A DNA stretch of 39,319 bases from an uncultured archaeon (GTDB lineage Archaea > Aenigmatarchaeota > Aenigmatarchaeia > Aenigmatarchaeales > Aenigmatarchaeaceae), in NCBI GenBank assembly GCA_964651405.1, contig CAZYZB010000001.1, positions 6,888 to 46,206 of the forward strand, given 5' to 3'. Positions 4,725 to 39,319 of this stretch are shown piece after piece. Position numbers and translations under genes: made by a program. How positions within the stretch are numbered: position 1 is the first letter of the stretch; every line of letters begins with the position of its first letter. The notes under the pieces were generated by a model. The model worked only from the letters and a program-made list of their open reading frames with translations. It did no database searches and was not told the origin of the DNA.

Positions 4725-4982
4725 CTAAGTTGGATATCCTCTAACTATTATTTTGCTATGGTATAAAATCAAGAATATACCGACTATGATCATGTAAGAA
4801 TAAACAAAACTTACTCCAAACTGGAGAATATCATCGCCATACATTTCTGGATAAGTTATAACTAAAATTAAACCAGAAGCTCCAATGAACAAGGAAACTA
4901 TTCCAGACCATAAAAGAATTCTCTCTGCGATATCTTCGACAGTAGTAGATATTGTCTCTGTTTTATCTTTTGGTGAGTTCAT
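4725..4982 (-). CDS. Small membrane protein with two predicted TM helices
   Basis: The 85-aa ORF has two hydrophobic stretches (ILLWSGIVSLFIGASGLILVI and VSFVYSYMIIVGIFLILY). It is the last gene of the long minus-strand operon. Confidence 0.55.
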   Translation of the reverse strand: MNSPKDKTETISTTVEDIAERILLWSGIVSLFIGASGLILVITYPEMYGDDILQFGVSFVYSYMIIVGIFLILYHSKIIVRGYPT

Positions 4983-5018
4983 TTATTCCATATAGAAATT
5001 AGAGTTCTTAACTTAAAG

Positions 5019-5462
5019 CTATTCTAATAAAGAATAATCTTCCTTTTCCTCACTAGAACTCTCTATAGGACTTGAAAGATTTTGTCCAAAACTGCTTAGT
5101 TTTTCCTCTAAAGATAAGGTTTTTTCATTTATTTTTTCAATCATAGAATTTATGTCTTCCCTATGCTTGTTTATCTTTTCTTCTAAGGTTAATACAGAAG
5201 AAACAGATCCTATACCTTCTAATATTCTTGAACATGCTGTTTCTAAATTTTCAATTTTTATGATTACACTGCTATCTATTCCTGCTAAAGACTTTCTCTT
5301 TTCTAGATAAAGCCAAAGCGCTATAAAATCCATTACTATTAAAAATATCACAGTCTCTAAGATTTGATATCCGCTTATCTGAAGGTACAAGCTAATTATA
5401 GTCGCAATAATTAGAACCCAAAAAGCTGTTTTATACATGAGAATATTGTTTGCATAAAACAA
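5019..5462 (-). CDS. Membrane protein with two N-terminal TM helices and a cytoplasmic coiled-coil/acidic tail
   Basis: The 147-aa ORF has TM-like AFWVLIIATIISLYLQI and VIFLIVMDFIALWLYL, followed by a heptad-like E/K/S-rich tail. The track start is TTG 5462, and ATG 5438 (MYKTAFW...) is an alternative. Confidence 0.6.
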   Translation of the reverse strand: MFYANNILMYKTAFWVLIIATIISLYLQISGYQILETVIFLIVMDFIALWLYLEKRKSLAGIDSSVIIKIENLETACSRILEGIGSVSSVLTLEEKINKHREDINSMIEKINEKTLSLEEKLSSFGQNLSSPIESSSEEKEDYSLLE

Positions 5463-5469
5463 TTTATAC

Positions 5470-6228
5470 TTACTTTAGACTTCTTAGCAATCTAGATAAA
5501 AAGCTCTCTTGGATATATTTTTCTCCTGCTAGGAAAGATGCAAGCTTAAACATTTCTTTGCTTGCAGCTGTATTTGGCTTGTACAAAGCTATTGGCATTT
5601 TTAATGCAAGACTTTTATAAACATTAGTGTCAAATGGAATTGTAGATATTACTGGCAGTTTTGTTAATTCTTCTATTTCATGTTTTGTCATTTCATGTTT
5701 CTTTTTATGGACCATGTTAAGGACTATACCCAATTCTTTTACCCCAAACTCTTTTGCAGCTTCTTGGCATCTTATTACATCCATCACAAATGGAACATAT
5801 GGGTTTGTTATATAAAGAAGCTCGTCACTTGCTTTGATTGTTGCCATAGCTTCTCTGCCTAAGCCAGGACTGCCATCAAGAATTATAACGTCATTCTTAT
5901 TGAAAATATCCTTCAAGCTATTCCTTAACTCAGTTACGTCAATTCCTTCCAAGTCGCTTAGCGATAATGATGCAGGAATTATATTCATCCCGCTGAAGTG
6001 ATGGTGAATGGAATCTTCAATACAGTTTTCTCCTCTTAAAACCTTATTCAGAGTTACAGGGCAGTAGTACATGCCCAAATAAAGGCTTAGATGGGACGTT
6101 GTGACGTTACAGTCCACTAAAGTAACGTTCTTTTTATGGTGCTTTGCAAGAATCGCTCCTAAGTTAAGACTAACAGTAGTCTTACCTACTCCACCTTTGC
6201 CACTAACAACTCCTATTATTCTTACCAA
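5470..6228 (-). CDS. minD: MinD/ParA-family deviant-Walker-A ATPase (paralogue 1) with a C-terminal amphipathic tail
   Basis: The sequence VRIIGVVSGKGGVGKTT carries the KGGxGKT deviant Walker A with the signature Lys, and VIILDGSPG is the Walker B. The start is TTG, preceded by GGTG (plus-strand cacc at 6234-6237) at 5 nt spacing. The C-terminus is ESFLSRLLRSLK. The switch region reads VDCN instead of DxD. Confidence 0.85.
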   Translation of the reverse strand: MVRIIGVVSGKGGVGKTTVSLNLGAILAKHHKKNVTLVDCNVTTSHLSLYLGMYYCPVTLNKVLRGENCIEDSIHHHFSGMNIIPASLSLSDLEGIDVTELRNSLKDIFNKNDVIILDGSPGLGREAMATIKASDELLYITNPYVPFVMDVIRCQEAAKEFGVKELGIVLNMVHKKKHEMTKHEIEELTKLPVISTIPFDTNVYKSLALKMPIALYKPNTAASKEMFKLASFLAGEKYIQESFLSRLLRSLK

Positions 6229-6240
6229 AATAACACCATT

Positions 6241-6507
6241 TTATTTGATTTCTTGGTTGTTTTCCTTATTTTCATTAGGTTTCGACTTTTTAAAAATACT
6301 ACCAAAAAGTCCACTAGCTCCTTTCTTTAGCATAGGCAAATCCTTGCCTGGTGCTTTAACTACCTTATAGCCTCTCGGTATGTTGAAAATTGCTCCAACA
6401 GGATTTTTTGAAAAATAATATAAAGTCGTTTTTCCTCTCCTCTTCATATGAAGCCAAAATTTTTTTCCAGCTCTAGTTTTATAACAATAAGGACTAAGTA
6501 AACCCAT
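6241..6507 (-). CDS. Small basic cytoplasmic protein with a MinD-MTS-like amphipathic motif (GLFGSIFKKSK)
   Basis: The 88-aa ORF starts with ATG, is Lys/Arg-rich and has no hydrophobic segment. It sits directly upstream of, and is tightly spaced with, MinD paralogue 1. Confidence 0.6.
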   Translation of the reverse strand: MGLLSPYCYKTRAGKKFWLHMKRRGKTTLYYFSKNPVGAIFNIPRGYKVVKAPGKDLPMLKKGASGLFGSIFKKSKPNENKENNQEIK

Positions 6508-6530
6508 AATTATATCACTTTTATCTATAA

Positions 6531-6540
6531 GATATAAAAT
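6531..6540 (-). promoter_or_regulatory. Possible internal TATA-like box (ATTTTATATC on the minus strand) upstream of the 88-aa/MinD1 genes
   Basis: It lies ~28 nt upstream of ATG 6507 and overlaps the stop codon of the 420-aa gene. Confidence 0.2.
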
Positions 6541-7802
6541 TATGTTTCTTCACCAACCTCTCTTAAGAGTTTTGGTCTCTTCTCTCTTTTTCTTCTCCTC
6601 AAAACAAATAGGAAAAATACAGCCAAAAGAATTAATGCCACTACTATTATGAACGGAGAAAATGCTGGTGCAACTTGCAGTTTGAGTCTAGCATGTGCCA
6701 ATTGAAACACTACATCTTCAAAATATTTCTTTATTTCATCTAATTTTTCCTTAGCGCCTTCATAATCTTCTGAATCATAATATTCCTTTGCTCTGTTAAG
6801 ACCTTCCTTTGCCTTTTCAAAGCTCCTTTCAGCTATTGTTGTGTTTAAACCTTCTGACTTTGCTTCAGTAATCATCCTATCTAGCTCATTTATAAGATAA
6901 TCATAGTTTAAGATCTTCTGATAAACATCATCTTTAATTGATATCCCATACGATGTTATGTTCAAGTTTATAATTCCATATTCTGCTATCTTGTCGCTTA
7001 ATAATTCAAAATTCAAAGGATATGTGCCTGGAGAAATATCTTGAGGTATAGTTAATGATATCAAGAACACTGTGGAGGCATTAACTTTAAGGTCCGGCAA
7101 TAACTTTGGGTTTATCTCGGTCGATACTAGGTTTGTAGTTGATGTTGTAAGCCTTAGATTATAAAGTGCTATCTCTCCTGTATTTTTCACGTTAATGTTT
7201 ATGAGCAAACTTTGGCCAGGATATAAATTGTAATTTTTCTGATAATCTGTGGTTATTCGAGGTATTCCAGCCTCTACTACTACATATTTCCATTCTGGAG
7301 CTGGTCCTGTATAAGGAGTGACTATTATTATTGGAGGTGGAGGAGAGACTGTATAAGTAACTGAAAAAGCTCCCCAAATTTCAGCAACCTTCGTATCATA
7401 AGGTACTCTAGCTTTTATATAATAAGTTCCGTATAATGGCGGCATGAAAACAGTCTTAAAAAATCTCTTTGCTCCTGGTGCGAGGCTGACAGAAGAATCA
7501 TAGTAATAAGCAATAGGGTCTAGCTTGGTAACATTGTAAAAATATATAGTTTCTTCTATTTTCGCTGTAGTAATTGGAAGAGAACCTATGTTGGTGAACT
7601 CTGCTGTTATATTCTGTAGTTCTGATATGTTAAGATAAGACTTGTATGCAAGGGTCACTCTTCCTAGTAAACCTTCCTTCACGCTTACGTCAGCACCTAC
7701 AGCCAATCCAGTTATGTTTAGAGCAAACCTACTAAAAATAAATACAATCAACAATGAAATGACCAGTAAAAATGTTTTGTTCATATTAATACCTTTAAAC
7801 AT
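6540..7802 (-). CDS. Type-I anchored surface protein: signal peptide, beta-sandwich (CARDB-like) domains, helical juxtamembrane stalk, TM helix and basic tail
   Basis: The N-terminal h-region is MNKTFLLVISLLIVFIF. Beta-rich segments include ININVKNTGEIALYNL. The helical region is AERSFEKAKEGLNRAKEYYDSEDYEGAKEKLDEIKKYFEDV. The TM helix is FSPFIIVVALILLAVFFLFVL, followed by RRRKREKRPK. Confidence 0.75.
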   Translation of the reverse strand: MFKGINMNKTFLLVISLLIVFIFSRFALNITGLAVGADVSVKEGLLGRVTLAYKSYLNISELQNITAEFTNIGSLPITTAKIEETIYFYNVTKLDPIAYYYDSSVSLAPGAKRFFKTVFMPPLYGTYYIKARVPYDTKVAEIWGAFSVTYTVSPPPPIIIVTPYTGPAPEWKYVVVEAGIPRITTDYQKNYNLYPGQSLLININVKNTGEIALYNLRLTTSTTNLVSTEINPKLLPDLKVNASTVFLISLTIPQDISPGTYPLNFELLSDKIAEYGIINLNITSYGISIKDDVYQKILNYDYLINELDRMITEAKSEGLNTTIAERSFEKAKEGLNRAKEYYDSEDYEGAKEKLDEIKKYFEDVVFQLAHARLKLQVAPAFSPFIIVVALILLAVFFLFVLRRRKREKRPKLLREVGEET

Positions 7803-7805
7803 AAT

Positions 7806-8429
7806 TTAGGAATATTTGTAAATTAAAAACGATGCGAGTAAAATAATGATGATAATTATTAAATAAGGATAATTGGAGTCATAATTACTTATTTCAAATA
7901 TGGCTTTTGAAGTTGGTGCGTTTGCTTTCTCTTCTGTTTTTTTGTTATTTTGACTTTCAGTTTCCTTAAAAAATAATGGATTTTCAACTTCAACTGTGAA
8001 TTTAAACAACCTTTCTTGAGATAGGCTTATTCCATTGCTAGGTAAGACAGAATTAGCACTTACTGTTATTTCATACCTTCCTGGGCTTGTAGAATTAGGA
8101 GGCTTAACTATTATGTCAACAGGGGTAGCTTTAATGCTGTCAGCCCTGTATGGCAGTTTTATATATTCCTTACCTGAGTATGAGCTTAAAATAAAATTAT
8201 TAGGCTCTATTATGATTATCCAGTTTTCAGGCATTTCCTTCGCATTTAATTCTAGTCTATAATCATTTTCAGTGTTCCAAAATAACACTCTAAACTTTGC
8301 TGAATCACCAATGCTTACTTTAGCAAAGTCATTTTTAACAACAGCGCCCATGTTTATAGCATACGCCCCTGCTGAAAGCAGTCCTAAAAATATTATCATA
8401 AAAATAAAAAATTTAACCATTTTTAACAC
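7806..8429 (-). CDS. Small anchored surface protein (signal peptide, one beta-sandwich domain, C-terminal TM helix)
   Basis: The signal peptide is MVKFFIFMIIFLGLLSAGAYA and the C-terminal TM helix is YLIIIIIILLASFLIY. The likely true start is ATG 8420, which overlaps the upstream stop by 8 nt (ATGGTTAA). The track start is GTG 8429. Confidence 0.7.
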   Translation of the reverse strand: MLKMVKFFIFMIIFLGLLSAGAYAINMGAVVKNDFAKVSIGDSAKFRVLFWNTENDYRLELNAKEMPENWIIIIEPNNFILSSYSGKEYIKLPYRADSIKATPVDIIVKPPNSTSPGRYEITVSANSVLPSNGISLSQERLFKFTVEVENPLFFKETESQNNKKTEEKANAPTSKAIFEISNYDSNYPYLIIIIIILLASFLIYKYS

Positions 8430-9765
8430 CAGTTATTGTTATTGTCCCATTATAGTAACCAGTATAAACTGCTGGGACGTTTATCCAATACCAAGTTGTA
8501 ACATTCGATTTTTGAGGGGCATTTAGTTTAATAACTTCGTCTGTTGTTTTTAAGCTGAAAGAACTTGAATAGCTGTTGCTTGTGTTACTCCAAGTTACAT
8601 TTCCAGTTCCTATGAAAGAATTTAAGGTTTCATTTACAAGATTAGTCCCTTTTATATACAAGTCCAAGTTACAGCTTCCAGCATTAACAGTTATGTTATA
8701 CTCATTATTTTCATTTCCTGGAGCAGGCTTTTGCTCTGTACTGGGATTCAGCAAACCAAATTTTATTGAAGACCAGGATAAGCTAAAATCTTCTGTACAA
8801 GAAACTATAGAGACTGTTGCATTATCTGTATGATTTCCCTGCAACTCTGGATAGGATGAATTAAATAAAACACCGATTTTCCAATAACTGTTGGTATCGC
8901 CTGTTGCATTGATAGTCCAGTTTAGTTTGCATGTTTGGCCCTTATACATAATTCCACAAGATTTCAAAGCACTAGTTGGAGTCTCTTGAATAAAGAATGG
9001 CTTGTCGCCAAAAGTTGTATTCATATCAGTATCAGGTTCATTAGATGTCAAATTATATCTAGCTGTTCCAAATATTTCTCCGCAAGGGCCGTTTCTGCAT
9101 GTTACTGTTGCATTTATTGGAAAATTATAATTTTGTATCAAGTTTGTAGTTAAAGACGTATTAGGATTTATGATATTAACTTCTAGATAGCCTGCTTCAT
9201 AACCAACATAGTACTGGACATAGTCTTCATTTAAGAGTCCAAGGTCTGCAGTTCCTGTTGAATTTATTCTTATTCTAATTATTCTGTCTGGAGAGTTGTA
9301 GTTCATTGGATTAGAAGTCATGTTACACCACCAATTTGTTGGCGTATTTGCTAAAACATTACCGGAATCACATCCGCTTGAAAACCATTGTGAATTTGCG
9401 AAATCATAAATTTGCATTGAATAGTAATCAGAAACGTTTGTCATGAAATTCATAGTAACGTTAATAAACAAAATGCTTCCATCCGCTATTTGCGAAGAAT
9501 TGTGCCAAACTTCTGCTCTATATGAGCCGTCCAATGCTTCAAGAATATCATAAGTTAAACCTTCTCCCAAAGCATTCAAGTCATTATAATCACCAGATGG
9601 ATCCCCACCAAAGGCAACATAAGGTTGACCAGACTGATTATATTGAATTACAGGGTCCAGCACGTAATAAGAATCAGAAGCTAAAACATGTTTTAATGAA
9701 AAGAAGATAATAAAAAACATTATAAAAGCTACTACTATTGACTTGTTAACTCTAATTTTAGTCAC
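8413..9765 (-). CDS. Secreted, sequon-rich, Cys-containing beta-rich protein with no C-terminal anchor
   Basis: It has a GTG start. The n- and h-regions read MTKIRVNKSIVVAFIMFFIIFFSLKHVLA, followed by SDS. It carries many N-x-S/T sites and ends GYYNGTITITGVKNG with no hydrophobic tail. Confidence 0.7.
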   Translation of the reverse strand: MTKIRVNKSIVVAFIMFFIIFFSLKHVLASDSYYVLDPVIQYNQSGQPYVAFGGDPSGDYNDLNALGEGLTYDILEALDGSYRAEVWHNSSQIADGSILFINVTMNFMTNVSDYYSMQIYDFANSQWFSSGCDSGNVLANTPTNWWCNMTSNPMNYNSPDRIIRIRINSTGTADLGLLNEDYVQYYVGYEAGYLEVNIINPNTSLTTNLIQNYNFPINATVTCRNGPCGEIFGTARYNLTSNEPDTDMNTTFGDKPFFIQETPTSALKSCGIMYKGQTCKLNWTINATGDTNSYWKIGVLFNSSYPELQGNHTDNATVSIVSCTEDFSLSWSSIKFGLLNPSTEQKPAPGNENNEYNITVNAGSCNLDLYIKGTNLVNETLNSFIGTGNVTWSNTSNSYSSSFSLKTTDEVIKLNAPQKSNVTTWYWINVPAVYTGYYNGTITITGVKNG

Positions 9766-9769
9766 TTGA

Positions 9770-10543
9770 TCACTTTCTAAGCTTTCCTACAAATCTTCGA
9801 AAGAAATTAGGCTTCCTATAATCAACACCTGCAATTTTTGATGCAATTTCAAAAAATGCTATGCTGGACGGAGAGTTTTGCTTAGAAATTGTCACAAGAG
9901 TTTTTTTGTTTGCACTTTCCATTATTTTTTCATCTTCAGGTATTATACCTATTATTGGAAGCTCAGTAAACTGTTTTATTTCATCAAGTTTAATTTCATA
10001 GGGCTTTTTTCTAACCCTATTTAATATTATTCCAAGTGGCAGAGGTCTATTTTCTAATGTATTGATTAACTGATGGCATTTAACTACGTCTACAAGAGAT
10101 GGAACATGCGGATTTGCAACAAACAAAGCTTCATCACTAGCTTGCAAGGCTATTAAACTTTCACGTCCTAGACTAGGTGCAGAATCGAGAAGGACGATGT
10201 CATAGTTAGCGAAGGCAAGTTTTAATTTTTCCTTAAAATTATTCACATCAATATTAACAATGTCTCTAAAATCTAGAGACGCTGGCACGATTTTTAAACC
10301 AGAATGATGAGTATAAACAGCGTCTTCTAACCTAGACTCATTCTTCAAAAAGCTGTTTAGTGTTACAGGATAAGAGTACAAACCAAAAAGTAGGCCTAAA
10401 TGAGAAGTAGTGAGATTGCAGTCTACAACTACAACTTTCTTATAAAACTTCTGTAGGGCTATGCCTAAATTAGATGCTACAGTTGTCTTTCCGACACCGC
10501 CTTTGCCTGAGCAAACATCAATTATTCTTACCATGTTTATCAT
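9770..10543 (-). CDS. minD: MinD/ParA-family deviant-Walker-A ATPase (paralogue 2) with a C-terminal amphipathic tail
   Basis: The sequence MINMVRIIDVCSGKGGVGKTT carries the deviant Walker A, and IVLLDSAPS is the Walker B. By eye it is roughly 45 percent identical to paralogue 1. The C-terminus is KPNFFRRFVGKLRK. The switch region is again VDCN. Its start overlaps the upstream gene by 26 nt (17 nt if ATG 10534 is used). Confidence 0.85.
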   Translation of the reverse strand: MINMVRIIDVCSGKGGVGKTTVASNLGIALQKFYKKVVVVDCNLTTSHLGLLFGLYSYPVTLNSFLKNESRLEDAVYTHHSGLKIVPASLDFRDIVNIDVNNFKEKLKLAFANYDIVLLDSAPSLGRESLIALQASDEALFVANPHVPSLVDVVKCHQLINTLENRPLPLGIILNRVRKKPYEIKLDEIKQFTELPIIGIIPEDEKIMESANKKTLVTISKQNSPSSIAFFEIASKIAGVDYRKPNFFRRFVGKLRK

Positions 10544-12914: not shown

Positions 12915-13126
12915 TTTTTTGACCTCGATATTGTATAAACATTCGACTTTCCAACTTTGTGGAATTCTAACTTCCCTTGATTCTTTAGAGCTTCTAGATA
13001 ACCAGTGATTATGTCTCTTCTTACTCCTAATTCTTTAGCAATCTGAGAAACTGATAATAGCTTAGAACTTAAAAGATCTATAATCTTCTTTTCAAAATCA
13101 TTAGCGGTTATAGATTCTTCTGACAT
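12911..13126 (-). CDS. Small winged-helix-turn-helix DNA-binding protein, a putative locus regulator
   Basis: The 71-aa protein has an HTH (LSVSQIAKELGVRRDIITGYLEALKNQGKL) followed by a wing (EFHKVGKSNVYTI). It is preceded by the only sizeable intergenic gap in the operon (13127-13207), which contains a TATA-like box. Confidence 0.7.
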   Translation of the reverse strand: MSEESITANDFEKKIIDLLSSKLLSVSQIAKELGVRRDIITGYLEALKNQGKLEFHKVGKSNVYTISRSKK

Positions 13127-13158
13127 ATTGCTGCCATATAGAAATAATATAAAACTAT

Positions 13159-13170
13159 TATATAAACTTT
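13159..13170 (-). promoter_or_regulatory. Internal BRE/TATA-like box AAAGTTTATATA upstream of the wHTH gene
   Basis: The 12-mer is identical to the one at 15431-15442, here read on the minus strand. It lies ~36 nt upstream of ATG 13126 in the 81-nt gap. Confidence 0.4.
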
Positions 13171-13207
13171 ATTATAATCATGTATATACTATGTTGCAGC
13201 TATATTG

Positions 13208-13951
13208 CTAAAGAAGAAGCTTTAAACTGTCTAGAATACTATGAAATATTCTTATTATACCTTGTTCTTTTTTCATTTCTAAAGTCTTTTCAGAATAATA
13301 TTTTCCGTTTTCAGCAACAACTGCTAGTTTTAAATCTTTAGGCTCAAAAAAAGTAGGATAATAGTTAATTGATACAGTCTTTACAGAACCTTTTCTCATA
13401 TAATCTATTGCTTTTTGTTCGAATATCCATCCAAGAACATATTTAGAAGGAATTACTATGATATTTTTTGCGTCGTTTTTGCTCTTTAGATCAAATATAA
13501 TGTGGTCATCATAGGTCCTAAAGTTCATAATTTCAAAGTTGTCTTCAGGAACTAAAGCTTCATTTATTTGAAATTCCTTTTTTTCATTCTCGATAATCTC
13601 GTTTCCAGCGTAAATTCTTAGTTTTGAATCATACTTTACCGGAGAGCTTGCATACCAATAAACATCAAAAATTTTCCTATCTCCTGGCATAAGAGTTTTT
13701 TCTTGGCTCCAACCATTAAAAAGTAGTTTATCACTTTTATATATGGAAATTCTTGCTCTTGCATTATATGCTATGCTTCCCACGTTAGAGAACTCTGTGG
13801 AGAACTTGACAACATTTGAAGAGATATTGACTCCCTCATGAACTACTTCACCTTTAATATCTTCATTTATGTCAACTTCTATCATGGATGAGAAAACAAT
13901 TTTAGCTAAGATTAGAATAAATAAAACAGCTATTAAAATTATTTTTTTCAA
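13208..13951 (-). CDS. Secreted beta-sandwich protein with a signal peptide and no C-terminal anchor
   Basis: It has a TTG start. The signal peptide is (M)KKIILIAVLFILILAKIVFS. The body is beta-rich, including FSTEFSNVGSIAYNARARISIY. Confidence 0.65.
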   Translation of the reverse strand: MKKIILIAVLFILILAKIVFSSMIEVDINEDIKGEVVHEGVNISSNVVKFSTEFSNVGSIAYNARARISIYKSDKLLFNGWSQEKTLMPGDRKIFDVYWYASSPVKYDSKLRIYAGNEIIENEKKEFQINEALVPEDNFEIMNFRTYDDHIIFDLKSKNDAKNIIVIPSKYVLGWIFEQKAIDYMRKGSVKTVSINYYPTFFEPKDLKLAVVAENGKYYSEKTLEMKKEQGIIRIFHSILDSLKLLL

Positions 13952-13955
13952 TAAA

Positions 13956-15427: not shown

Positions 15428-15430
15428 AAT

Positions 15431-15442: not shown

Positions 15443-15454
15443 TGGGCTTTACAA

Positions 15455-15462: not shown

Positions 15463-15471
15463 GCAATCGAA

Positions 15472-26409: not shown

Positions 26410-26410
26410 T

Positions 26411-33500: not shown

Positions 33501-36500
33501 ACATTGTCTAGTGAATTACCATTCTTGAAGAAATAAACTGTATAGTTTGACAACGGTTGAGTTGTATTACCGTCTATAACATGGCATTTAATATCAACTG
33601 CTGCACCTGCTGAATATGCAGAACCGTTTGAAGGTATTATAGAGTCGATATCGCTCCATCCATAAATATAAACTGAAGTGCTATTACTGTTGTTATCATA
33701 ATATTGCCTAGTTACGTTTGAGTAAATTGTTTCAGAACCACGCTTATAGTTTATAGGTATACTCCAAGTTGTGTTATATCCGTTTGATAAAAGATTCCAA
33801 GTAGAATTATACCAACTAACATTTGCACCTGTAACTCCCTGATTACATTCATTACTTACGCTCGAATTTAATTCTGCTGTTCTATTTCTATTTAGTATAG
33901 CTCCTGTTTTTGGATAATTCAATGAAATATTTAATTGTCCGTAAACGATAAAACTTGCATTAGTAGAATTAATAATCTGATAACAGCTAAAGCCATTCTT
34001 TTCAACAGTTCCTGTCTTCCAATATTGCAATCCAACTGAAGAACTGCAATTAGGATTATAGTTTATGCTGCAATTACCATTCGAGGATGTGCAATTAAAA
34101 GCAGAAGAATAACTAGAGCCATCTTCAGTGATATAAATTGTTCCATTGGCGTTCGTTGGGTAAGTTTGATTATCGCTGTCGTAGATTCTAAATTCTAAAA
34201 ATGCAATGTTGTTGTTAATTCTTCTTACGCTAGAATTACTTGAAGTAGTGTTTATAGTTAAAGTTACATTGTCTCTTTCTAAAGTTATGTTATTAGATTC
34301 AGTCTCATCTTTGTAACCGAACGGATCTGTTGTGTTAAACTTGTAATACAAGCGTGGGGATTGAAGCGCATAGTCGTCGCAACTAAGCCTATAAGTAAAT
34401 GATATATCCTTTCCAATTCCTTGATCCTGTTTCATCTCAATCAAGTACCATGTTACATTATCATAACTTTTCCATAAACTAACATTGTTCATGTTGAGGT
34501 CTTGATCTGTTAAGGTTACCTTAAACTCGTATAACTCTCCCCAACCTCCAATAGTTTTGGGAGTTTCTGTGCCAGGAATTACAACACGAGGATTGTACAA
34601 ATCAGGCCTATAGCCAAGATAGAATGCATTATATTTTAAAGTAGAATTGCTAGCATAATAATTCTTGCTAGCTGACATACTTATATTGTACCAACCTCTT
34701 GAAAATGGTATTTTTGTACAATTATACCATCCTAAATTTTCCATCCAACCATTGTTGTCTATTTTTGTACAATCATAGTATACTCCGGATTGGTGAGTAT
34801 ATCTATACGTAACAGTTGCATTTTCTATGTAACTACATTCGTCATTTAAAGTTCCATTGGCAGGTACAGGATCTCCGAAAATGTATCCTTGACCAGAAGG
34901 ATTTACTATTGATGGTGCTAAATAAGATTTTAATGCAAATGTGTAATTTGTACTGTTCTTATATTTGTAACATGCATCATTGTAAACTCCTCCAAACCAA
35001 TTTTGCGTGCCAGTCTTGTAATCGCACTTAGCTTGACCAGCTGGTATGTCTTGTGGGAATTTATAGGTTAAATTACTATCATCATCTGAGCTTGAAATTT
35101 TTTGACCAGCAAAATTAGTTCCGTTAGTAGTTACCCAGAAACTACCATTTACACCAGAGCCTATAGCTATATTTCCACGGTCAAAATCTGTAATCTTTAA
35201 ACTTAGATTTATGTAATCTGTTCCATTTCTCCAAACTTCAGTGTTCCCACTCATAAATGTTAAGTTAACATCATTCTTCTCTAATGAAAAGTTCTTTGGT
35301 TCTATTGTAGTTTCATATATTGTATCTCCAAACAAAGGACTATTTCCATCGTCTGTAGCATTGAATTTGAATTCCCAAATATGAGGATAAGGATCAGATT
35401 GGCTCGCTTCGCAAGCTCCTTTTGACCAACTTAAAGTTATTGTTGTGTTTATGGCAGGAGACTCGATGTTTGTTTTGTTAGCTTGTAACCAACTGCCTAT
35501 TCCAAACCTTCTTACGTAAAGTGTGGCATTAATGTAATCGTAATCATCATCGTTAACAGTCGCATTGAAATAAAATCTTTCTCCCCAACCGCCTATTTCT
35601 CCGCCTTGGGTAGAAACTATAGAGGTGTTTAAGATTGACGGCTTTGTTTCTATAAAGAATGAACCATTAACTCTAACAGATTTATTATTAAAGTAATCCT
35701 TTGTGACGTTTACGATAATATTATACCATCTAGCTCTCATGTCTGAGGTATTTCTATTACATCTATAAACCCCAGTTGTTGATAGTGGTTGAACTATTTC
35801 TGTGCAATTGTAAGTGTCATTTGTTACATTGTTTATAGCTTGCATAGTTATGCTGCTTACATTAATTTCTACGTTACAATCATCCTTAATCGCTTCATCT
35901 GTTGGAGGAACTCCAGCATTTATTGTTAAGTTTTGCTCGTCTCTTAGAACAGTCTGATCATTATAAAAGTTAGGAGACCTGTAAGCATATGGAGTATAAT
36001 TTAAATCAGCGTATATTTCTAAAGTGTAGTTTGTTGTATTTTGTTGTACATAGCAATTATCTGTTATAATACCCTTCCATTTTTGTGGTCCAGGCGAGTT
36101 GTAATTACAATCTGGATTAAAGTAATATAATACATGGCCTGAAGAATTAGTTGAGTTCATTTGAGATAAGAAAACACTTTCACTTTTTGTTATATAGAAT
36201 GTCACATTAGAATTATTAGCTGGAACATTTTTGTCTGTATCATTTACACCAAGGATTAATAAATCTACATTGTTTGAAGAACTGTCTGATCTGTTTACTT
36301 TGGTGTCGTTTCCCCAAATATAATAAATTACTGCATCATCTTTAGTTATGTTTGGTCCTTGTACAGCTGAGGTATTTCCTATATTTGTGCCATCATATAT
36401 TTGCCATCTAAACCATTTTGTATTAGTAGAATTGTCGATCTCTTCACATATGAAATCGCTCACGTTTATGCTGCAGAGGCCAATCCCATTGTTTATCGTC

Positions 36501-39319
36501 ACATTGCCTCTGTTAATCCAGCTGTTTCCATCATTTTTGCTTATGAATAAAGTACAAGTTACATTATCCAGTTGAGTGTCATTAACATTTACACTATAAT
36601 TAAATTTAGTTCCCCAGCCTTCAATAGAAGGACTGACATTTAAATTTGAATACTCAGTTGCAGTATTATTCAAATAAGTCCAGTTTACAAGCAAAGTTGA
36701 ATTATCATAGTAATAAGTTTTACTCGAGTTTACCCTTATACTGTAATAACCACCCATGTGCAGGCTCGTGTTCCATGTATTGTTGTATTGACCGCTGCTT
36801 AATTCTTGTGCAGGCGATGGTTGCAATAGCTCATATATTAAATTTGGATTTCTTTTTTCATGACTCACATTTGCACTTGTTATTGCTAAACTACATTCAT
36901 CTGAAATATTTGATGTAACATTTACTGTGAGACCAGCGACTATCATAGAACTTTGCGGAGGATAAATTATTGAGTTCTTTAATTGACCGTAAATATATGT
37001 GGTTTTATTATCGGTTTGACTAACTCCATAACAACTATCATTTAATGCTATCTTCCACCATTGTCTTCCTGCTGAAAAATTACAATCTGGTTCAAAGCTA
37101 TAATTAAAGTAACCATCACTCTTAGTCTTGATATTAGTGTAGTTAAAGAAGTTATCTCCATTTGTTGTGAACTGAACAGTTCCATTAACATTTTCAAAAT
37201 TAATTTCACCTTGTAGGTCGTCTATAAATTTAACTCCTAAATAAGTAGTTCCAGTTCCTTCTCTGCCAATTGAATCTCCATCACCGAATAAAGATACTAT
37301 GTTAGGAGAAGTTGGATCAACTGCTATTGAGAATGTATTATTACCTTGATTCGTGTAGTTAAAATTGTCTGAAACATTAAACTTGAAGAATTTATTTCCA
37401 ACGTCACTATATGTTCTGTTACAATCGAAGCTTATGCCACTAAATGCCAAATAAGCGTCTGTGCAGTTTCCTGTAGAAGGAACACATATCTTTGAACTAT
37501 AATAATCCCAATTGCCAGTAAGGTTTAACCATAATGAAACATTCAACGTGCTGCCAAGCTCACCGTCTTTATCATTATCTTCTGCATTTGTTGCAAATGT
37601 CCAAGAGTCTCCCCACGAATAATACCCAGCAGAAGTTGTGGGCGCATCTAAAGTTAATACTGGTTTTGATGTTAAGTAATAAGAATTAATCGTTAGGTTA
37701 GTTTCAGATGAAGTATAATATTGTTTTTCTGCCTTTGTTGTCACGTTAACATAACCATAGTTCCATGCTGGCGGATTTGTACCATGGGTTGTGTTTCTAA
37801 ATGTGCAGTTATAAACTCCTCCACCTTCATATATTATTGCTCCTTGAGGACTCTGATCATTAACACAATCTTTTTCTTGTGGTGTAGCTAAAAGCTGTTG
37901 TGACTTGAATGTTACATTAGCATTTGTAATCGGTCTACACTCATCAGTTATGTTAGCTCTAACGCCTACATTTTCTATTCCTTTCAGGAACAAGTGTCCA
38001 TTCAATGGTTCTAGGAAATTAACTCTTAAATCTATAGTTGTTACGTTTATGCTGAAATTAGTACTGTTTGTAATCTTGTAAGCTGAAGATGTTATTATGC
38101 CAGCTTTCCATTTTTGTGGTCCAACTTCAAAATTACATCCAGGATCGAATTGTCCAGAGCTTGTATTTATATAGCCTTGAGATGTTGAAGAGCCTACTTG
38201 TATAAAGCTACTTGCAGTATCATTAGTTACCCACATATTGCCTGTAAATCCGATTGTTGGGTAAACTCCTTTATCTCTATCGAATACTCTTACACTTAAT
38301 GTCTGAGAGCCAGAACTTCTGTTGACAATCGTACCATTGCCTTCTATATATTCCAATAAAATATCATCTTCTCTGACTGTAAATGCTCCATTAGCAGTTT
38401 CATTAATATTCTGTGGGAGCTGCGGATCTGGAGAAGTTTCACTCACGTTGAATTTAAATGCATGAGGTCCTAGTCCAGGATTATTGAATGCAGGCCATCC
38501 ATAGATTATGAAAGTTACGATTGTATTATTCCCCTGTATAGTTGTGTTTGACATGGCAGTTGCATTTGGTTGTGCCCATTCTCCTGACGGAACAGTTTGA
38601 CTAGAATTTACAAAAAGTTTTACAGTCATCGTGTCGTTGTCCTCATCTGAAGCATTAACTCTGAATATCCACCTTTCTCCCCAACCACCATCATCTTGTA
38701 TTCCTGTTGAGTTGTAAGATTGTACTACAAAGTTACTTGTTAGCACTGGTTTGGTTTCAACCCAGAAGCCTCTTTGGTTTGCTTGATAAGTTTCGTTAGT
38801 TTCATTATAATTATAATTCTGTCTAGTGGCATTCAATTTTACATCCCAGCCTTGAGCTAAGAAACCACTTGTATTTAGACTACAATTGTAACTTCCATCA
38901 CCGACGTTTACTATTGGGTTACAATAATTAATCGCAGCACCTCTTATTGCAGAAAAGTTAACATTAGCATCAGTTACTACAAAATCACATTCATCGCTAA
39001 TGTTTCCTATAATTGGAATGTTTTCTCCGTCTGGATATTCTCCTCTCAGATATTTCTCTCCGTTTGGTGATGTTATTGTGAGTAATCTTAAATCACCAGT
39101 GACATTCAATGTGAAGTTGGTTGCTGTTGCATTCAAATCCCGATAACAGCTGTCAGTCGTACCAGCTATCCAGTAATGCCTGTCAGCAGTGTGTGTGCAG
39201 TTTGGATCAAACCAATAACTGGCATTTCCCAAAGAGTCAGTAGTACTGATGTTCTCAAGCCTGTAGGCAGAAGACTCGTTAGTGACCCAAAAGCTGACAT
39301 TGACGTTGTTAGCATAAGT
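26411..39319 (-). CDS. Giant (>4,300 aa) sequon-rich surface protein fused through one TM helix to a C-terminal cytoplasmic HerA/FtsK-superfamily ATPase; the 5' end lies outside the window
   Basis: The track ORF starts at an internal TTG (39232). I translated 39233-39319 in the same frame (TYANNVNVSFWVTNESSAYRLENISTTDS) and found no stop. That stretch also matches the internal repeat pattern, so the gene continues upstream. A 12.9-kb open frame in AT-rich DNA cannot arise by chance. Confidence 0.9.
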   Translation of the reverse strand, partial: TYANNVNVSFWVTNESSAYRLENISTTDSLGNASYWFDPNCTHTADRHYWIAGTTDSCYRDLNATATNFTLNVTGDLRLLTITSPNGEKYLRGEYPDGENIPIIGNISDECDFVVTDANVNFSAIRGAAINYCNPIVNVGDGSYNCSLNTSGFLAQGWDVKLNATRQNYNYNETNETYQANQRGFWVETKPVLTSNFVVQSYNSTGIQDDGGWGERWIFRVNASDEDNDTMTVKLFVNSSQTVPSGEWAQPNATAMSNTTIQGNNTIVTFIIYGWPAFNNPGLGPHAFKFNVSETSPDPQLPQNINETANGAFTVREDDILLEYIEGNGTIVNRSSGSQTLSVRVFDRDKGVYPTIGFTGNMWVTNDTASSFIQVGSSTSQGYINTSSGQFDPGCNFEVGPQKWKAGIITSSAYKITNSTNFSINVTTIDLRVNFLEPLNGHLFLKGIENVGVRANITDECRPITNANVTFKSQQLLATPQEKDCVNDQSPQGAIIYEGGGVYNCTFRNTTHGTNPPAWNYGYVNVTTKAEKQYYTSSETNLTINSYYLTSKPVLTLDAPTTSAGYYSWGDSWTFATNAEDNDKDGELGSTLNVSLWLNLTGNWDYYSSKICVPSTGNCTDAYLAFSGISFDCNRTYSDVGNKFFKFNVSDNFNYTNQGNNTFSIAVDPTSPNIVSLFGDGDSIGREGTGTTYLGVKFIDDLQGEINFENVNGTVQFTTNGDNFFNYTNIKTKSDGYFNYSFEPDCNFSAGRQWWKIALNDSCYGVSQTDNKTTYIYGQLKNSIIYPPQSSMIVAGLTVNVTSNISDECSLAITSANVSHEKRNPNLIYELLQPSPAQELSSGQYNNTWNTSLHMGGYYSIRVNSSKTYYYDNSTLLVNWTYLNNTATEYSNLNVSPSIEGWGTKFNYSVNVNDTQLDNVTCTLFISKNDGNSWINRGNVTINNGIGLCSINVSDFICEEIDNSTNTKWFRWQIYDGTNIGNTSAVQGPNITKDDAVIYYIWGNDTKVNRSDSSSNNVDLLILGVNDTDKNVPANNSNVTFYITKSESVFLSQMNSTNSSGHVLYYFNPDCNYNSPGPQKWKGIITDNCYVQQNTTNYTLEIYADLNYTPYAYRSPNFYNDQTVLRDEQNLTINAGVPPTDEAIKDDCNVEINVSSITMQAINNVTNDTYNCTEIVQPLSTTGVYRCNRNTSDMRARWYNIIVNVTKDYFNNKSVRVNGSFFIETKPSILNTSIVSTQGGEIGGWGERFYFNATVNDDDYDYINATLYVRRFGIGSWLQANKTNIESPAINTTITLSWSKGACEASQSDPYPHIWEFKFNATDDGNSPLFGDTIYETTIEPKNFSLEKNDVNLTFMSGNTEVWRNGTDYINLSLKITDFDRGNIAIGSGVNGSFWVTTNGTNFAGQKISSSDDDSNLTYKFPQDIPAGQAKCDYKTGTQNWFGGVYNDACYKYKNSTNYTFALKSYLAPSIVNPSGQGYIFGDPVPANGTLNDECSYIENATVTYRYTHQSGVYYDCTKIDNNGWMENLGWYNCTKIPFSRGWYNISMSASKNYYASNSTLKYNAFYLGYRPDLYNPRVVIPGTETPKTIGGWGELYEFKVTLTDQDLNMNNVSLWKSYDNVTWYLIEMKQDQGIGKDISFTYRLSCDDYALQSPRLYYKFNTTDPFGYKDETESNNITLERDNVTLTINTTSSNSSVRRINNNIAFLEFRIYDSDNQTYPTNANGTIYITEDGSSYSSAFNCTSSNGNCSINYNPNCSSSVGLQYWKTGTVEKNGFSCYQIINSTNASFIVYGQLNISLNYPKTGAILNRNRTAELNSSVSNECNQGVTGANVSWYNSTWNLLSNGYNTTWSIPINYKRGSETIYSNVTRQYYDNNSNSTSVYIYGWSDIDSIIPSNGSAYSAGAAVDIKCHVIDGNTTQPLSNYTVYFFKNGNSLDNVSTDSNGYANKTWYTSTESAGWYNLTCKIEDNTTVYYNASISKRESWVILSRPLIIDQIIRQYDSIYRNDSFNPHQTNITAHTKDADIGDADNSSVYFYSSTSLLGNCTTNITGWCSLINFNPDDTFTPGPYTIYINATNSQNENSQTNNTSITVKGILNTTIISPPDTDHCGASGLICPKSTFIVLRANGTTENEESFSIINPTIKWYNETIQLAEGNDTTMPLPTVIQQKTGPHQIMAVAIKPYYDDGSKNVSINITGISAVEWISPTGIVSYPNMFYPTCFVKDQASSSGIADYAINFSYKWEPASDFTFNGTYQTNSTGYANYNFIPTQKGNITFNCTIGNNDTQFYTANIPNDVETLWIKDIEAPKIYNISMIPNESIEANLNITNITAKVEDNYEIDSVWANITAPNGTVIVYMSNITIPETGFGFYRAIYSANYTAPIEGFYNVSIFAKDSGPEYNINSSYAGNLSVWGKINGFVQQSPLSITAFGVNQTHGYTFTVYTNFTNLGPATAYNVNLTHQENPSGSISYNDSYKYCGTLYANQVCSWIFNVTVPTKTIPSLIKAYTVGSWRNPDLTLNETMNLTDILVSSNPILDVSPTSIYQTTPHDKETTVGNFTALSGGNYRVTSIMVSLLPQNQPGNIVYACPSCIVTFIPEKPGTLEPGSNASVVVKIQVPAGQPPGNYWSYINVSSSNAGEKYVFMNITVPTNNSWERIPESFGTISAPPNTNGTIGYINVSNIGNVKLQFETFNTGDNGYLTIENTTFPYAFELEKQARKDLLIGWITPTNAVQQLWNATITLTSSGTPSSKVINLTLDTRDIPPIITDININPMQFEFGYENVSIQARITDNIAVDKAWVNITPPNSSSFIMLLQNYSSNIYNTTYVYPIAGTHQIIICANDTASLITCTSPYNITSSDTTIIQITPNATLIKITNITQEWGQSFVINFSVSNIGGSRATNINASINSSINVTASPNNYSYAILVRNASQYNTTTITVSNATQPGIYYVDFNANWTNLNNTFNSSKATLELNVTRNPFIDIVENEINRLIFAATNETINITLRSIGNDNATNISLNCISGIVCQNFNVTLNPQNISQLPIGNITYVNITFIIPYNYPTGTHTGTISVNWFDSIQSQNFSTTLPVSILVPANTSWIHQPTEIYKRILDNETGIYGEINITNTGNSQVPLEITVNGTIAPYLTLGNFTNISYGEMKTIKINYSSPSIVYDTNYTGYITTNLTGALRENASQKEKSTFVSLFVTPYNVKIIYPNETNPKLGVNPGNVIQVKVNVTENGTIVNSNTTFVIKLFNDTISNVTVASSSFDSPQNLWLVNFTAPNFALERAYNLNVTASHNGTYNNTRSDVKYNSIVYNDSTAPKINISIPVRIPANTTLNIREIIIESGILKNLTSNIIYPDSSNLTINLALISTSIETYIYEFNFTNTSQLGNYTIYARACDLSGNCNSTTTIFEIYPTVIFSGYAKDVESASENPLLFNFRFLDLGTNSLRFNFTSNSSTGYYNETIDAKNYNLEISTHATNFLNTLKLYGYNITVSYYNPISLGNIPRVRTTISALKGIYISNSLPYSSAKIVIDFSDCASGGCSIPIYDPQHLGIYRYNANWTPKITTAQNTLWTRISNVGYDNSDGSVNLTSLSVSVNTTLNGAYILAEYICGNGECDSSYGESTTNCPTDCPYIPIPPTPPGGGGGGGGGGAGGGAGAGGAGGAGGGGAAGAGGVPSVPVTPVPLEVKSTLIETTLAPGEEKTFSVDVTNNLETSVSATVVAEGPVFKLLTIQKPVLTIGRKSTEVIEIKAAASTKTIPGIYTGEIVVKAGAVTHRTPVTVNVQALIEPLLDVKVKILSKEVSPGSNLSFEISLMNMGETAKVEDITVTYSVYALNNQSYIVTSSKETLAVEDVATYRSTINIPAKTPEDKYILEANASYWYGKKFATSTDNFDVSSLPWPLLILRSVFLNWLTYVVLLVGVPLIIIFMRWYSSYRASKIAKARYVAPLDFNTLPKAGPDAIEVGRVAETDVKAYINIPQLVMHSIAAGGTGSGKSVSAQVCSEELLKRKVPIIVFDPTAQWTGFMKPCKLQAMIDLYPKFGLKPTDVRSFKTNIILVEDPDMQIDIKKYMIPGEITVFVMNRLPAEKLDHFVRRSIQAIFDMRPGESKQIKLLLVYDEVHRLLPKYGGKGGYIAIERACREFRKWGIGVFLISQVLLDFKGAIRANIANEIQLRTKYEGDIGRVKSKYGVDYASKVTRLTIGTGLFQNPEYNNGRPWFLSFRPLLHSPFALTDEEIDTYIKLNKRIEAVDAVIGKMKTNKIDTYDIEVELNIVKDKVKTAAFKMAETYLESIEKRIEKMK
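27527..27622 (-). other. Single TM anchor of the giant protein
   Basis: The sequence is PWPLLILRSVFLNWLTYVVLLVGVPLIIIFM, followed by the positive-inside cluster RWYSSYRASKIAKAR. Confidence 0.7.
28291..28400 (-). repeat. GC-rich low-complexity tract encoding a Pro-rich plus poly-Gly/Ala linker
   Basis: The region encodes PYIPIPPTPPGGGGGGGGGAGGGAGAGGAGGAGGGGAAGAGGVPSVPVTPVP. Locally it is strongly GC-rich in an AT-rich window, and imperfect GGN/GCN triplet repeats are visible. Confidence 0.9.
33700..39319 (-). repeat. At least six diverged ~1.0-1.1 kb (about 330-360 aa) super-repeats in the distal ectodomain of the giant protein
   Basis: A landmark motif of the form [FY]-[DEN]-P-x-C-[NS]...W-[KF]...C-Y recurs at ~39210, 38140, 37090, 36110, 35020 (variant KCDYKTGTQNWFGG) and 34050. 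Each is followed by D-E-C, Y-[NR]-C and G-W-G-[ED]-x-[WF]-x-F...D-x-D motifs. Confidence 0.7.

Follow-up and report, generated by a model that had tools for sequence, protein, structure and literature searches.

The 39,319-nucleotide stretch of DNA analyzed here (hereafter the window; contig CAZYZB010000001.1) comes from an uncultured Aenigmatarchaeota archaeon, and we conclude with high confidence that the 22 tightly packed genes at 4725-39319 form a cell-surface locus centered on a giant membrane-anchored protein of the SPEARE family (Table 1). Whether the locus is a host-contact apparatus, in which an adhesin is joined to a HerA-type translocase that is scaffolded and positioned from the cytoplasm, seems to us about evenly balanced. 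A first-pass annotation of the same DNA had taken the region for an envelope locus of ~35 kb encoding a candidate undescribed apparatus. The first part of that interpretation stood: the products are envelope or membrane-peripheral proteins nearly throughout and make a coherent set as judged from open reading frames (ORFs), topology, and Pfam; the source is a DPANN archaeon; and the gene order is kept in relatives. The word "undescribed" did not stand, since the giant with its fused HerA-like domain belongs to a published family.

The SPEARE-type giant and its motor domain

The N terminus of the giant lies beyond both the window edge and the contig end, with 4,302 codons inside the window, and read toward the C terminus its visible part comprises a beta-sandwich ectodomain rich in sequons, a linker of Gly and Ala, a membrane-proximal pair of beta-sandwiches, a transmembrane (TM) helix, a HerA-like ATPase, and helical hairpins. 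The C-terminal 201 residues of the founding SPEARE protein, NAR1_1133 of Ca. Nanohaloarchaeum antarcticus, align over their full length with the window giant at 42% identity (E 4e-61). Residues 3700-4298 align at 35% identity (E 1.7e-112) with the last ~600 residues of BNXNv_0298 (8,880 aa) of Ca. Nanohalovita haloferacivicina, in which two beta-sandwiches, TM helix, ATPase, and helical tip occur in the same order. Because its C terminus is homologous to both proteins, membership of the giant in the SPEARE family is established at the level of sequence.

The family was first described by Hamm 2019 (PMC6642349) and was later re-analyzed as giant membrane-anchored extracellular proteins of cultivated nanohaloarchaea (PMC10266531). 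In the published architecture, a signal peptide and a very long Ig-like ectodomain precede a TM helix near the C terminus, and the cytoplasmic side holds a conserved P-loop domain with a coiled coil as its tip (PMC6642349, PMC10266531). In accordance with this, the window protein is very long, mostly extracytoplasmic, and has a single TM helix near the C terminus, and its ectodomain is of the Ig-like repeat type as judged from an NPCBM_assoc match, a beta-sandwich model, and homology to the CARDB-type domains of two further window proteins, g420 and g1967. Unlike what was first described for the family, serine protease, laminin-G, toxin, and restriction-endonuclease domains were absent by Pfam from the visible 4,302 aa and from two relatives of ~4,700 aa; this agrees with the 2023 re-analysis, which had already disputed these domains in SPEARE proteins (PMC10266531). 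The "ResIII" signal in the family is a weak Pfam match on the same P-loop domain.

Production of the SPEARE protein has been reported for Ca. Nha. antarcticus, where the ectodomain and the cytoplasmic portions were recovered in separate size fractions (PMC6642349). A role in adhesion together with transfer of DNA or effectors is an existing proposal for the family (PMC6642349, PMC10266531). The supplement of Hamm 2019 (PMC6642349) lists an Aenigmarchaeota homolog, and therefore the presence of the family in the phylum was noted already in 2019. Three nanohaloarchaeal members, NAR1_1133 (5,998 aa), SVXNc_0300 (9,409 aa), and BNXNv_0298, share the architecture and the C-terminal 200-600 residues with the window giant, and a coiled-coil gene follows downstream as in the window. 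The window differs in its phylum, in orthologs called at ~14,000 aa, and in a ~2,000-aa partner, two MinD proteins, tandem secreted paralogs, and a 13-gene operon, which are unmentioned in those two papers (PMC6642349, PMC10266531).

Orthologous giant genes were called in their source collections at 14,402 aa (L086; JGI Ga0315279_10000018), 13,738 aa (L088; ENA ERZ27249349 k141_53488), and 8,615 aa (L001), where labels L001-L088 denote individual related loci whose DNA was compared with the window; these ORFs were verified within the fetched flanks (L086, 20684-20900; L088, 20082-20885; L001, 1-6109). If the calls are right, the orthologs of ~14,000 residues are larger than SVXNc_0300, the largest protein in cultivated archaea (PMC10266531). 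Of 78 loci, 71 had a module ORF that extended back to the first base of the fetched DNA, and in 56 it was at least 1,500 aa long, and therefore the giant form is the rule among the closest relatives; SPEARE ectodomains among relatives range from ~0.3 to ~14 thousand residues. At L001 (1-11203) and L031, the giant gene is split into several consecutive ORFs, which could reflect frameshifts, assembly errors, or decay. Within residues ~35-1760 of the window giant, the short motifs [FYW]x[FYP]x[PQ]xC...W[KW] and GGWGE recur at a spacing of ~345 residues, a hint of divergent super-repeats of several Ig-like domains, and self-BLAST of the ectodomain found no repeats at E 1e-5. The linker is encoded by an imperfect 18/24-nt tandem repeat (28294-28390), which gives rise to a local GC peak and to spurious ORFs (28134-28518) in frames other than that of the giant gene.

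ATPases of the HerA and FtsK types are known as hexamers that translocate DNA. A membrane-tethered ATPase of this type, fused to the larger giant, had been proposed in the first-pass annotation and was borne out by DUF87/HerA_C matches, a HerA fold, and the single TM helix. The Walker A (AGGTGSGKS) and Walker B (VYDEVH) motifs were invariant in 27 aligned sequences. In an AlphaFold2 model of the conserved 620-residue base module (alignment A1; mean pLDDT 86), the two beta-sandwiches are followed by a long TM helix and then by a RecA-like domain, with helical hairpins at the C terminus. When the module was compared with the PDB by Foldseek, HerA hexamers were the top matches (4d2i, 9x1m, 8wiv, and 8xau; E ~1e-13), and neither VirB4 nor a coupling protein (T4CP) was among the top 50; HerA was also best in a profile search against PDB sequences (E 1e-9). 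By NCBIfam, HerA models gave 18-39 bits (cutoffs, 800-970). Modeling and alignment thus show a HerA-like fold with an intact catalytic site, and the published "VirB4/TraG-like" label is right at the superfamily level only. The motor has its best structural and profile matches in HerA proteins (Sulfolobus HerA 4D2I, HerA-NurA, and SIR2-HerA), whereas it carries a TM helix and an ectodomain in place of the N-terminal HAS barrel of the HerA clade. An exhaustive HMMER search with the module returned 806 clusters (50% identity) at E<=1e-30; among the 150 best hits, most had the module at the C terminus, and the proteins reached 7,878 aa.

This assignment bears on a proposal of La Cono, Reva and colleagues (2023), who described a type IV secretion system (T4SS)-like injector with the giant as a "straw" and a VirB4/TraG-like ATPase that secretes effectors into the host (PMC10266531). 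Some homologs have faint Pfam matches to TrwB_AAD_bind, AAA_10, and T4SS-DNA_transf, which would suit such an injector. FtsK-type ATPases are also known to drive protein secretion in type VII secretion systems. Nevertheless, we regard an effector injector as quite unlikely: fold and profile searches place the domain with HerA rather than VirB4 or T4CP, the TraC, TraD, and TraB models gave 15-19 bits against cutoffs of 366-800, and no PF03135, T4CP all-alpha domain, VirB6/8/9/10, or relaxase was found above cutoff in the window by Pfam and NCBIfam. Besides, BNXNv_0297 (L085, 10001-11887), which the literature describes as another VirB4/TraG ATPase carrying PF03135 at its N terminus, has a signal peptide, two beta-sandwiches, a TM helix, and the same ATPase as read from its sequence, and PF03135 was not among its precomputed Pfam hits; it is, by these features, a short-form SPEARE paralog.

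The top structural neighbors of the motor also include the SIR2-HerA and DUF4297-HerA defense complexes, and PADLOC reported a generic, partial HerA match (46.6 bits), as might be expected of an anti-phage defense or mobile-element module. We consider such a module extremely improbable. No NurA or other nuclease gene is encoded in the window or in syntenic loci, no Sir2 or DUF4297 partner is encoded nearby, no phage families were matched, and the GC content is even along the whole window. Moreover, chromosomal contigs of 381 kb and 437 kb carry the locus in the same gene order, and because related loci sit within them, the window is chromosomal DNA of an Aenigmatarchaeota (DPANN) archaeon.

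More generally, Pfam, NCBIfam, and defense and phage-family searches of the window matched no characterized system, and the families recognized were limited to MinD/ParA, beta-sandwiches (CARDB, NPCBM_assoc, CarboxypepD_reg, and MG2), a small winged helix-turn-helix (wHTH) domain, and DUF87/HerA_C. The stated absence of pilus or archaellum, VirB, archaeosortase, and S-layer genes held as well: no T2SSE, T2SSF, Peptidase_A24, VirB, archaeosortase, or S-layer family was found in the window, and the N termini are ordinary Sec-type signal peptides or anchors, which speaks against a type IV pilus or archaellum. Only in the distant L002 is there a Peptidase_A24 gene in the vicinity, ~9 kb from the locus. 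The Ced/Ted systems of Crenarchaeota are alike in outline, with CedB a membrane HerA-type ATPase implicated in intercellular archaeal DNA transfer, but Ced proteins have no giant ectodomain; the NCBIfam model "CedD DNA-translocating ATPase" matched the motor weakly (33 bits, E 2.7e-8; cutoff, 600), and no CedA, CedA1, or CedA2-like membrane partner was found by Pfam or NCBIfam. Membrane-anchored Ig-like proteins and a cytoplasmic ATPase without classical secretion genes are shared with the archaeal secretion system predicted by Makarova 2015 (arCOG01314; MoxR ATPase, vWA, DUF4350, and Ig-like "S-layer" proteins; PMC5898192), but the window has no MoxR, vWA, DUF4350, or DUF1616 domain.

Partner genes across DPANN archaea

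The ATPase end of the giant has 549 relatives, of which the named ones are DPANN almost throughout and the closest are 70-88% identical, in line with the archaeal source claimed at first. A scan with one genome per species gave at least 564 loci, and the best 80, all from GTDB species representatives, were used for gene-linkage counts, in which all ORFs were translated and compared with the window proteins. These 80 are headed by Aenigmatarchaeota metagenome-assembled genomes (MAGs) with 70-76% identity in the module, followed by genomes labeled Micr-, Nanohal-, Undin-, Woese-, Alti-, and Parv-archaeota and Nanoarchaeia. Two loci, L072 and L079, have the module at 47-62% identity on short contigs binned as Halanaerobiaceae bacterium and Heimdallarchaeota, which are probably mis-binned DPANN DNA. 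The module was also found in Nanoarchaeia-, Nanoarchaeota-, and Parvarchaeota-labeled genomes (L075, L077, L081, L083, and L084), whereas Hamm 2019 (PMC6642349) reported no family member in Nanoarchaeota or Parvarchaeota; labels changed by taxonomy revision may account for the contrast.

In 76 of the 80 loci, which cover at least eight DPANN lineages, the next gene after the ATPase module on the same strand encodes a homolog of cc637, the coiled-coil protein encoded next to the giant; in Ca. Nanohalovita, the homolog after the giant has 518 aa (E 1.6e-15). Among the 46 loci with at least 8.5 kb of downstream DNA, a g1967-like gene was present in 32 and a MinD gene in 21, and the linkage spans Aenigmat-, Nanohalo-, Alti-, Undin-, and Nanoarchaeia-labeled genomes. 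We recognize a conserved four-gene core of SPEARE-type TM-HerA ATPase, coiled coil, anchored protein of ~2,000 aa, and MinD.

The second giant, g1967, begins with a signal peptide and continues through beta-sandwiches of the NPCBM_assoc and MG2 families and a helical stalk to a TM helix (residues 1871-1889) and a cytoplasmic coiled-coil tail; no DUF2341 or LamG head domain was matched in it. Its homologs in the 32 loci are 1,850-2,150 aa long and evenly conserved along the chain, in contrast with SPEARE ectodomains of ~0.3-14 thousand residues. The same gene order occurs in miniature at short-form loci, which encode a 722-aa ATPase, a 527-aa coiled coil, a 306- to 344-aa protein, and MinD. The third of these proteins consists of a signal peptide, a beta-sandwich, a helix, a TM helix, and a coiled-coil tail, and its counterparts in the window are g420 and the C-terminal 370 residues of g1967; indeed, g420 matches g1967 residues 1526-1897 at E 6e-107. 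The membrane-proximal CARDB-like pair of the giant is likewise present in short-form relatives of ~720 aa. Outward extension thus seems to have taken place in parallel in the two membrane partners.

The positioning of envelope machines is a known task of MinD/ParA ATPases; for example, Haloferax MinD4 positions the motility machinery, and TadZ/CpaE serves Tad pili. Both window MinD proteins exceed the cutoff of the archaeal MinD model TIGR01969 (201.75 bits) and have the deviant Walker A motif SGKGGVGKTT. In other, more distant DPANN lineages, the MinD encoded after the g1967-like gene is the ortholog of MinD1 (50-57% identity). Like MinD4 and TadZ/CpaE, the window MinD proteins are linked to an envelope machine, but archaellum, chemotaxis, and pilus genes are not linked to them.

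A membrane FtsK/HerA pump with MinD site selection and CdvA-like coiled coils at the septum could alternatively make up a division or chromosome-segregation module. Such a module would fit the archaeal MinD matches, the FtsK-HerA superfamily of the ATPase, a core that is nearly universal in DPANN, and a weak CdvA-like match of the small coiled coil cc100 (E 0.006-0.0085). We nonetheless find it very unlikely, as a DNA pump for division would have no use for an ectodomain that is giant, variable, and glycosylated, a genome can hold several paralogous loci, the CdvA match is far under its 30-bit cutoff, and no FtsZ, SepF, or ESCRT genes are linked in the loci compared.

Two amphipathic motifs of the form GG[FL][FL]KSIFGKK are found in the window cc637, together with a SHOCT-like motif and a basic tail rich in Lys and Pro. 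Its DPANN homologs end in a strongly conserved L-x-[DE]-L-E-[DE]-[ST]-[FY]-[KR]-K-G-[LF]-I-S-[KR]-E-A-Y-E-K-T-K-K; in the window protein the SHOCT-like motif is internal, and variants occur in cc100, cc135, and the g1967 cytoplasmic tail. As a bona fide SHOCT domain (PF09851), the motif was rejected for all four proteins, with a best score of 18.4 bits (E 0.0018) against a cutoff of 27; Pfam matches to the GvpG C terminus recur below threshold for proteins with this motif. Between these genes and g1967 lies g154, a 154-aa protein with 3-4 TM helices and a HExxH motif (HELSH), kept at the same position in 21 loci. We regard it as a candidate intramembrane zinc protease, whose cleavage could account for the separation of ectodomain and cytoplasmic parts in SPEARE proteomics (PMC6642349). 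Near the BNXNv locus, no g154 homolog was found, which limits this candidacy to Aenigmatarchaeota.

Some single MAGs have two family loci each (L008 and L082; L075 and L077; L011 and L080), e.g., one giant and one short form of ~728 aa, each with its own coiled-coil partner, a point to which we return below.

Operon and secreted paralogs of Aenigmatarchaeota

The remaining genes of the locus were examined by ORF listing and translation, and the gene content first described (two giants, tandem paralogs, a 13-gene operon, three K/E-rich proteins, and a HExxH protein) was confirmed by the ORFs. The operon runs on the minus strand from 15427 to 4725 with intergenic gaps of -26 to +81 nt. By hydropathy, seven of its proteins have an N-terminal signal or anchor, four of them with a C-terminal TM helix too, and two are small 2-TM proteins. 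All four gene junctions that had been pointed out were as claimed on direct reading: ATGA at 12911-12914, ATGGTTAA at 8413-8420, TAGaATG at 26407-26413, and a 26-nt overlap at 10518-10543. The second of these makes the ATG at 8420 the start codon of g207. The K/E-rich proteins have K+E fractions of 0.39, 0.27, and 0.36. The claimed richness in N-x-S/T sequons proved to be a real excess, two- to fourfold above composition-based expectation in the surface proteins counted (observed versus expected: giant, 255 versus 86; g1967, 117 versus 45; parA, 16 versus 4; parB, 13 versus 4; and g450, 22 versus 10).

Table 1. Features of the SPEARE-centered locus, with positions in the window
Feature	Position	Strand	Description	Basis
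SPEARE-type giant	26411..39319	-	C-terminal 4,302 residues	ORF and domain searches; N terminus off window
Linker	28294..28390	-	poly-Gly/Ala, imperfect 18/24-nt tandem repeat	between giant ectodomain and conserved 620-aa base module
CARDB-like pair	27632..28273	-	two membrane-proximal beta-sandwiches, residues 3683-3896	AlphaFold2 model, alignment A1, g420 homology
TM helix	27557..27613	-	single, residues 3903-3921	hydropathy and AlphaFold2 model
Motor domain	26618..27436	-	HerA/FtsK-superfamily P-loop ATPase	Pfam DUF87/HerA_C, family alignment, Foldseek, PDB profile search
Helical hairpins	26414..26617	-	C-terminal; "coiled coil at the tip" of SPEARE (PMC10266531)	AlphaFold2 model, NAR1_1133 alignment
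cc637	24496..26409	-	K/E-rich cytoplasmic coiled coil, translationally coupled to giant	downstream homologs, motif reading
cc100	24197..24499	+	small K/E-rich coiled coil, SHOCT-like motif	ORF, Pfam; syntenic in L006-L008, L010, L016, L018, L020, L029, L086
cc135	23775..24182	+	small K/E-rich coiled coil, basic tail	ORF, locus comparison
g154	23224..23688	-	154-aa, 3-4-TM protein with HExxH	weak Peptidase_M50B (E 0.02) and DUF3267 matches
g1967	17291..23194	-	second giant type-I membrane glycoprotein, 1,967 aa	ORF, Pfam, topology
parB	16391..17290	+	secreted paralog	ORF, topology
parA	15472..16356	+	secreted paralog	ORF, topology
g322	14459..15427	-	signal/anchor beta-sandwich, first operon gene	ORF, topology
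g171	13956..14471	-	signal/anchor beta-sandwich	ORF, topology
g247	13208..13951	-	signal/anchor beta-sandwich	ORF, topology
wHTH71	12911..13126	-	small winged-helix regulator	Pfam HTH_5 / PF0610-like_N; position conserved
g798	10518..12914	-	type-I membrane protein, several beta-sandwiches including CarboxypepD_reg, TM 716-734, basic cytoplasmic tail	
MinD2	9770..10543	-	archaeal MinD-type ATPase, C-terminal amphipathic basic helix NFFRRFVGKLRK	TIGR01969 214.7 bits
g450	8413..9765	-	secreted, sequon- and Cys-rich	ORF, topology
g207	7806..8420	-	signal peptide, beta-sandwich, C-terminal TM	ORF, topology
g420	6540..7802	-	beta-sandwiches, helical stalk, TM; miniature of g1967 base module	
g88	6241..6507	-	small basic protein, C-terminal GLFGSIFKK amphipathic motif	next to MinD gene in L087, present in L017
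MinD1	5470..6228	-	archaeal MinD-type ATPase, C-terminal amphipathic helix SFLSRLLRSLK	TIGR01969 208.3 bits
g147	5019..5462	-	2 TM helices and cytoplasmic coiled coil	ORF, topology
g85	4725..4982	-	2 TM helices, last operon gene	ORF, topology

The gene order is conserved in relatives rather than scattered. The order of the whole window recurs in L086 and L088, with proteins 40-99% identical, as giant, cc637, small coiled-coil genes or MinD, g154, g1967, one or two paralogs, and then an operon ordered g322-g171-g247-wHTH-g798-MinD2-g450-g207-g420-g88-MinD1. L086 and L087 come from sediment samples. At L087, the operon, one paralog, and g1967 stand together, with a PAS kinase in place of the SPEARE side, and at L017 (~30% identity) g322-g171-g247 and g798 lie directly behind SPEARE, coiled coil, and MinD; g322-g171-g247 is syntenic in L086, L087, and L088. 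The operon is hence linked to the SPEARE core in independent arrangements. For g147 and g85, no homologs were found among the fetched loci. From its sequence and position, the small basic protein g88 is a candidate MinD partner.

Divergence from the near-identical L086 (window 6409-26626) is mosaic: proteins from g322 to g450 are 93-99% identical, the paralogs 87-89%, g1967 78%, g420 73%, and the small coiled-coil proteins ~60%, a pattern suggesting that selected surface and scaffold genes evolve faster or recombine. In L088 (1188-2347), a HEPN/nucleotidyltransferase toxin-antitoxin pair is inserted in the operon directly after the MinD2 ortholog. ARAGORN called a 100-nt tRNA-Ala within the MinD2 coding sequence (10083-10182, minus strand); it had no Rfam tRNA at gathering score and is most likely a false positive. 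A look-up of MinD2 by exact sequence had no match. Outside the locus, a gene for an Lhr-type DEAD/DEAH helicase (3-4220, minus strand) runs past the left edge of the window and carries a LAGLIDADG intein at protein residues 324-822, inside the Helicase_C domain. A promoter and terminator scan of the window used bacterial models, uninformative for an archaeon.

The tandem paralogs parA and parB are 70% identical, and both have a Sec signal peptide, an extended N-terminal segment, a beta-sandwich, four conserved Cys residues, and many sequons. Their family has only 120 members among 5.8 billion proteins, the named ones all of Aenigmatarchaeota type. The AlphaFold2 model (pLDDT 92, pTM 0.81) contains a signal-peptide helix, an extended segment at residues 26-48 (lower confidence), and the beta-sandwich. 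Foldseek found no significant match to it in the PDB or BFVD, and the paralogs have no sequence or Pfam relation to TasA/CanA-type fiber subunits or other families; the weak top matches were TasA (8aur; E 0.014, prob 0.51), CanA (9h8b; prob 0.69), and chaperone-usher pilins.

These weak matches, all to donor-strand fiber subunits, offer a tentative lead: the paralogs may be self-assembling subunits of this type. Known donor-strand fibers (TasA, 8AUR; the Pyrodictium cannula protein CanA, 9H8B; archaeal bundling pili; and threads) are likewise built from small secreted beta-sandwich subunits with an extended N terminus; like the paralogs, they are without a dedicated assembly ATPase and are glycosylated (for the paralogs, as predicted from sequons). 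If true, this would explain why no assembly ATPase is encoded, as self-assembling fibers would need none.

A proposed contact apparatus and its significance

The host-contact apparatus introduced at the outset would work as follows. The giant would be exported by Sec, N-glycosylated, and held in the membrane by its single TM helix, and its cytoplasmic domain would assemble as a ring by analogy with other HerA ATPases. In this way several giant ectodomains would be gathered into one long adhesive stalk, and its base would act as an ATP-driven translocase of a polymer, for which DNA is the best guess. Underneath, cc637, the small coiled coils, and the g1967 cytoplasmic tail, which share the SHOCT-like motif, would form a sub-membrane scaffold, and the MinD pair, bound to the membrane, would serve to position the complex or to concentrate it, as gene linkage and sequence motifs suggest. 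The conserved, fixed-length g1967 would be a structural partner stalk, and in Aenigmatarchaeota a surrounding surface structure would arise from the secreted paralogs together with the operon's bitopic beta-sandwich proteins. The purpose of the whole would be host-cell contact and macromolecule transfer across the symbiont membrane.

Several points weigh against this proposal. Family members are known experimentally by proteomic detection only, and we know of no host for Aenigmatarchaeota. A single TM helix per protomer cannot alone form a DNA-sized channel, and no channel protein was identified in the window, where the small proteins with 2-4 TM helices are not conserved beyond close relatives. 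Short forms of ~720 aa, with an ectodomain of ~270 aa, are frequent, and their partners are those of the giant form. The adhesin part is hence an addition that the core function does not require, and this function may be more general. Some MAGs, as noted above, have two loci. In addition, the SHOCT-like match lies below the Pfam cutoff (18 bits versus 27), and for the fiber idea the TasA and CanA matches are not significant (E >= 0.014, TM-score 0.2-0.4).

Besides, the even conservation and fixed length of g1967 fit a structural envelope protein equally well as host contact. The locus could accordingly be a general envelope island for the cell's own coat and its anchoring, with g1967 S-layer-like, the paralogs as lattice subunits, the other Ig-like proteins as accessories, and the ATPase and MinD serving coat insertion or patterning and not host interaction. 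We judge this rather unlikely. It would fit the constancy of g1967 over 32 genomes, the very wide spread of the core in DPANN, the short forms nearly without an ectodomain, and the fact that nearly all products are predicted glycosylated beta-sandwich surface proteins with C-terminal anchors as in archaeal S-layer glycoproteins. However, no S-layer family was matched in the window by Pfam or NCBIfam, separate S-layer genes have been reported for Nanohaloarchaeota and Aenigmarchaeota, and a SPEARE ectodomain that varies from 0.3 to 14 thousand residues among relatives is unlike a lattice protein. A fused HerA-type translocase, moreover, has to our knowledge no role in S-layer biogenesis.

Returning to host contact, a stronger version of the proposal is that the four-gene core, with its SHOCT-like coiled coil, is a new class of archaeal machine, found throughout DPANN, for contact between cells and transfer of macromolecules, driven by HerA and positioned by MinD, distinct from type IV pili, Ced/Ted, and T4SS, and accompanied in Aenigmatarchaeota by donor-strand fibers made of the paralogs and a ring of bitopic beta-sandwich proteins. 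We consider this version doubtful. As for novelty, the giant centerpiece and its proposed role in adhesion and transfer are already known. In the literature that we searched, outside which most subscription journals lie, the conserved four-gene core, the assignment of the motor to HerA and not VirB4, the SHOCT-like motif network, the fixed-length second protein, and the Aenigmatarchaeota-specific paralogs and operon appear to be new.

A central question in archaeal symbiosis is by what means DPANN archaea attach to their hosts and obtain from them the things that they are unable to make. Among the candidates, SPEARE proteins stand out most, and they have so far been treated as lone giants of Nanohaloarchaeota. 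Our analysis indicates that their motor module is one part of a gene set conserved over many DPANN lineages and that the motor is HerA-like rather than VirB4-like. Its companions, namely the coiled coil, the fixed-length anchored protein, and MinD, are concrete partner candidates for host gripping in cultivable pairs of nanohaloarchaeon and haloarchaeon, and the core genes are usable as a marker set for the system in metagenomes.

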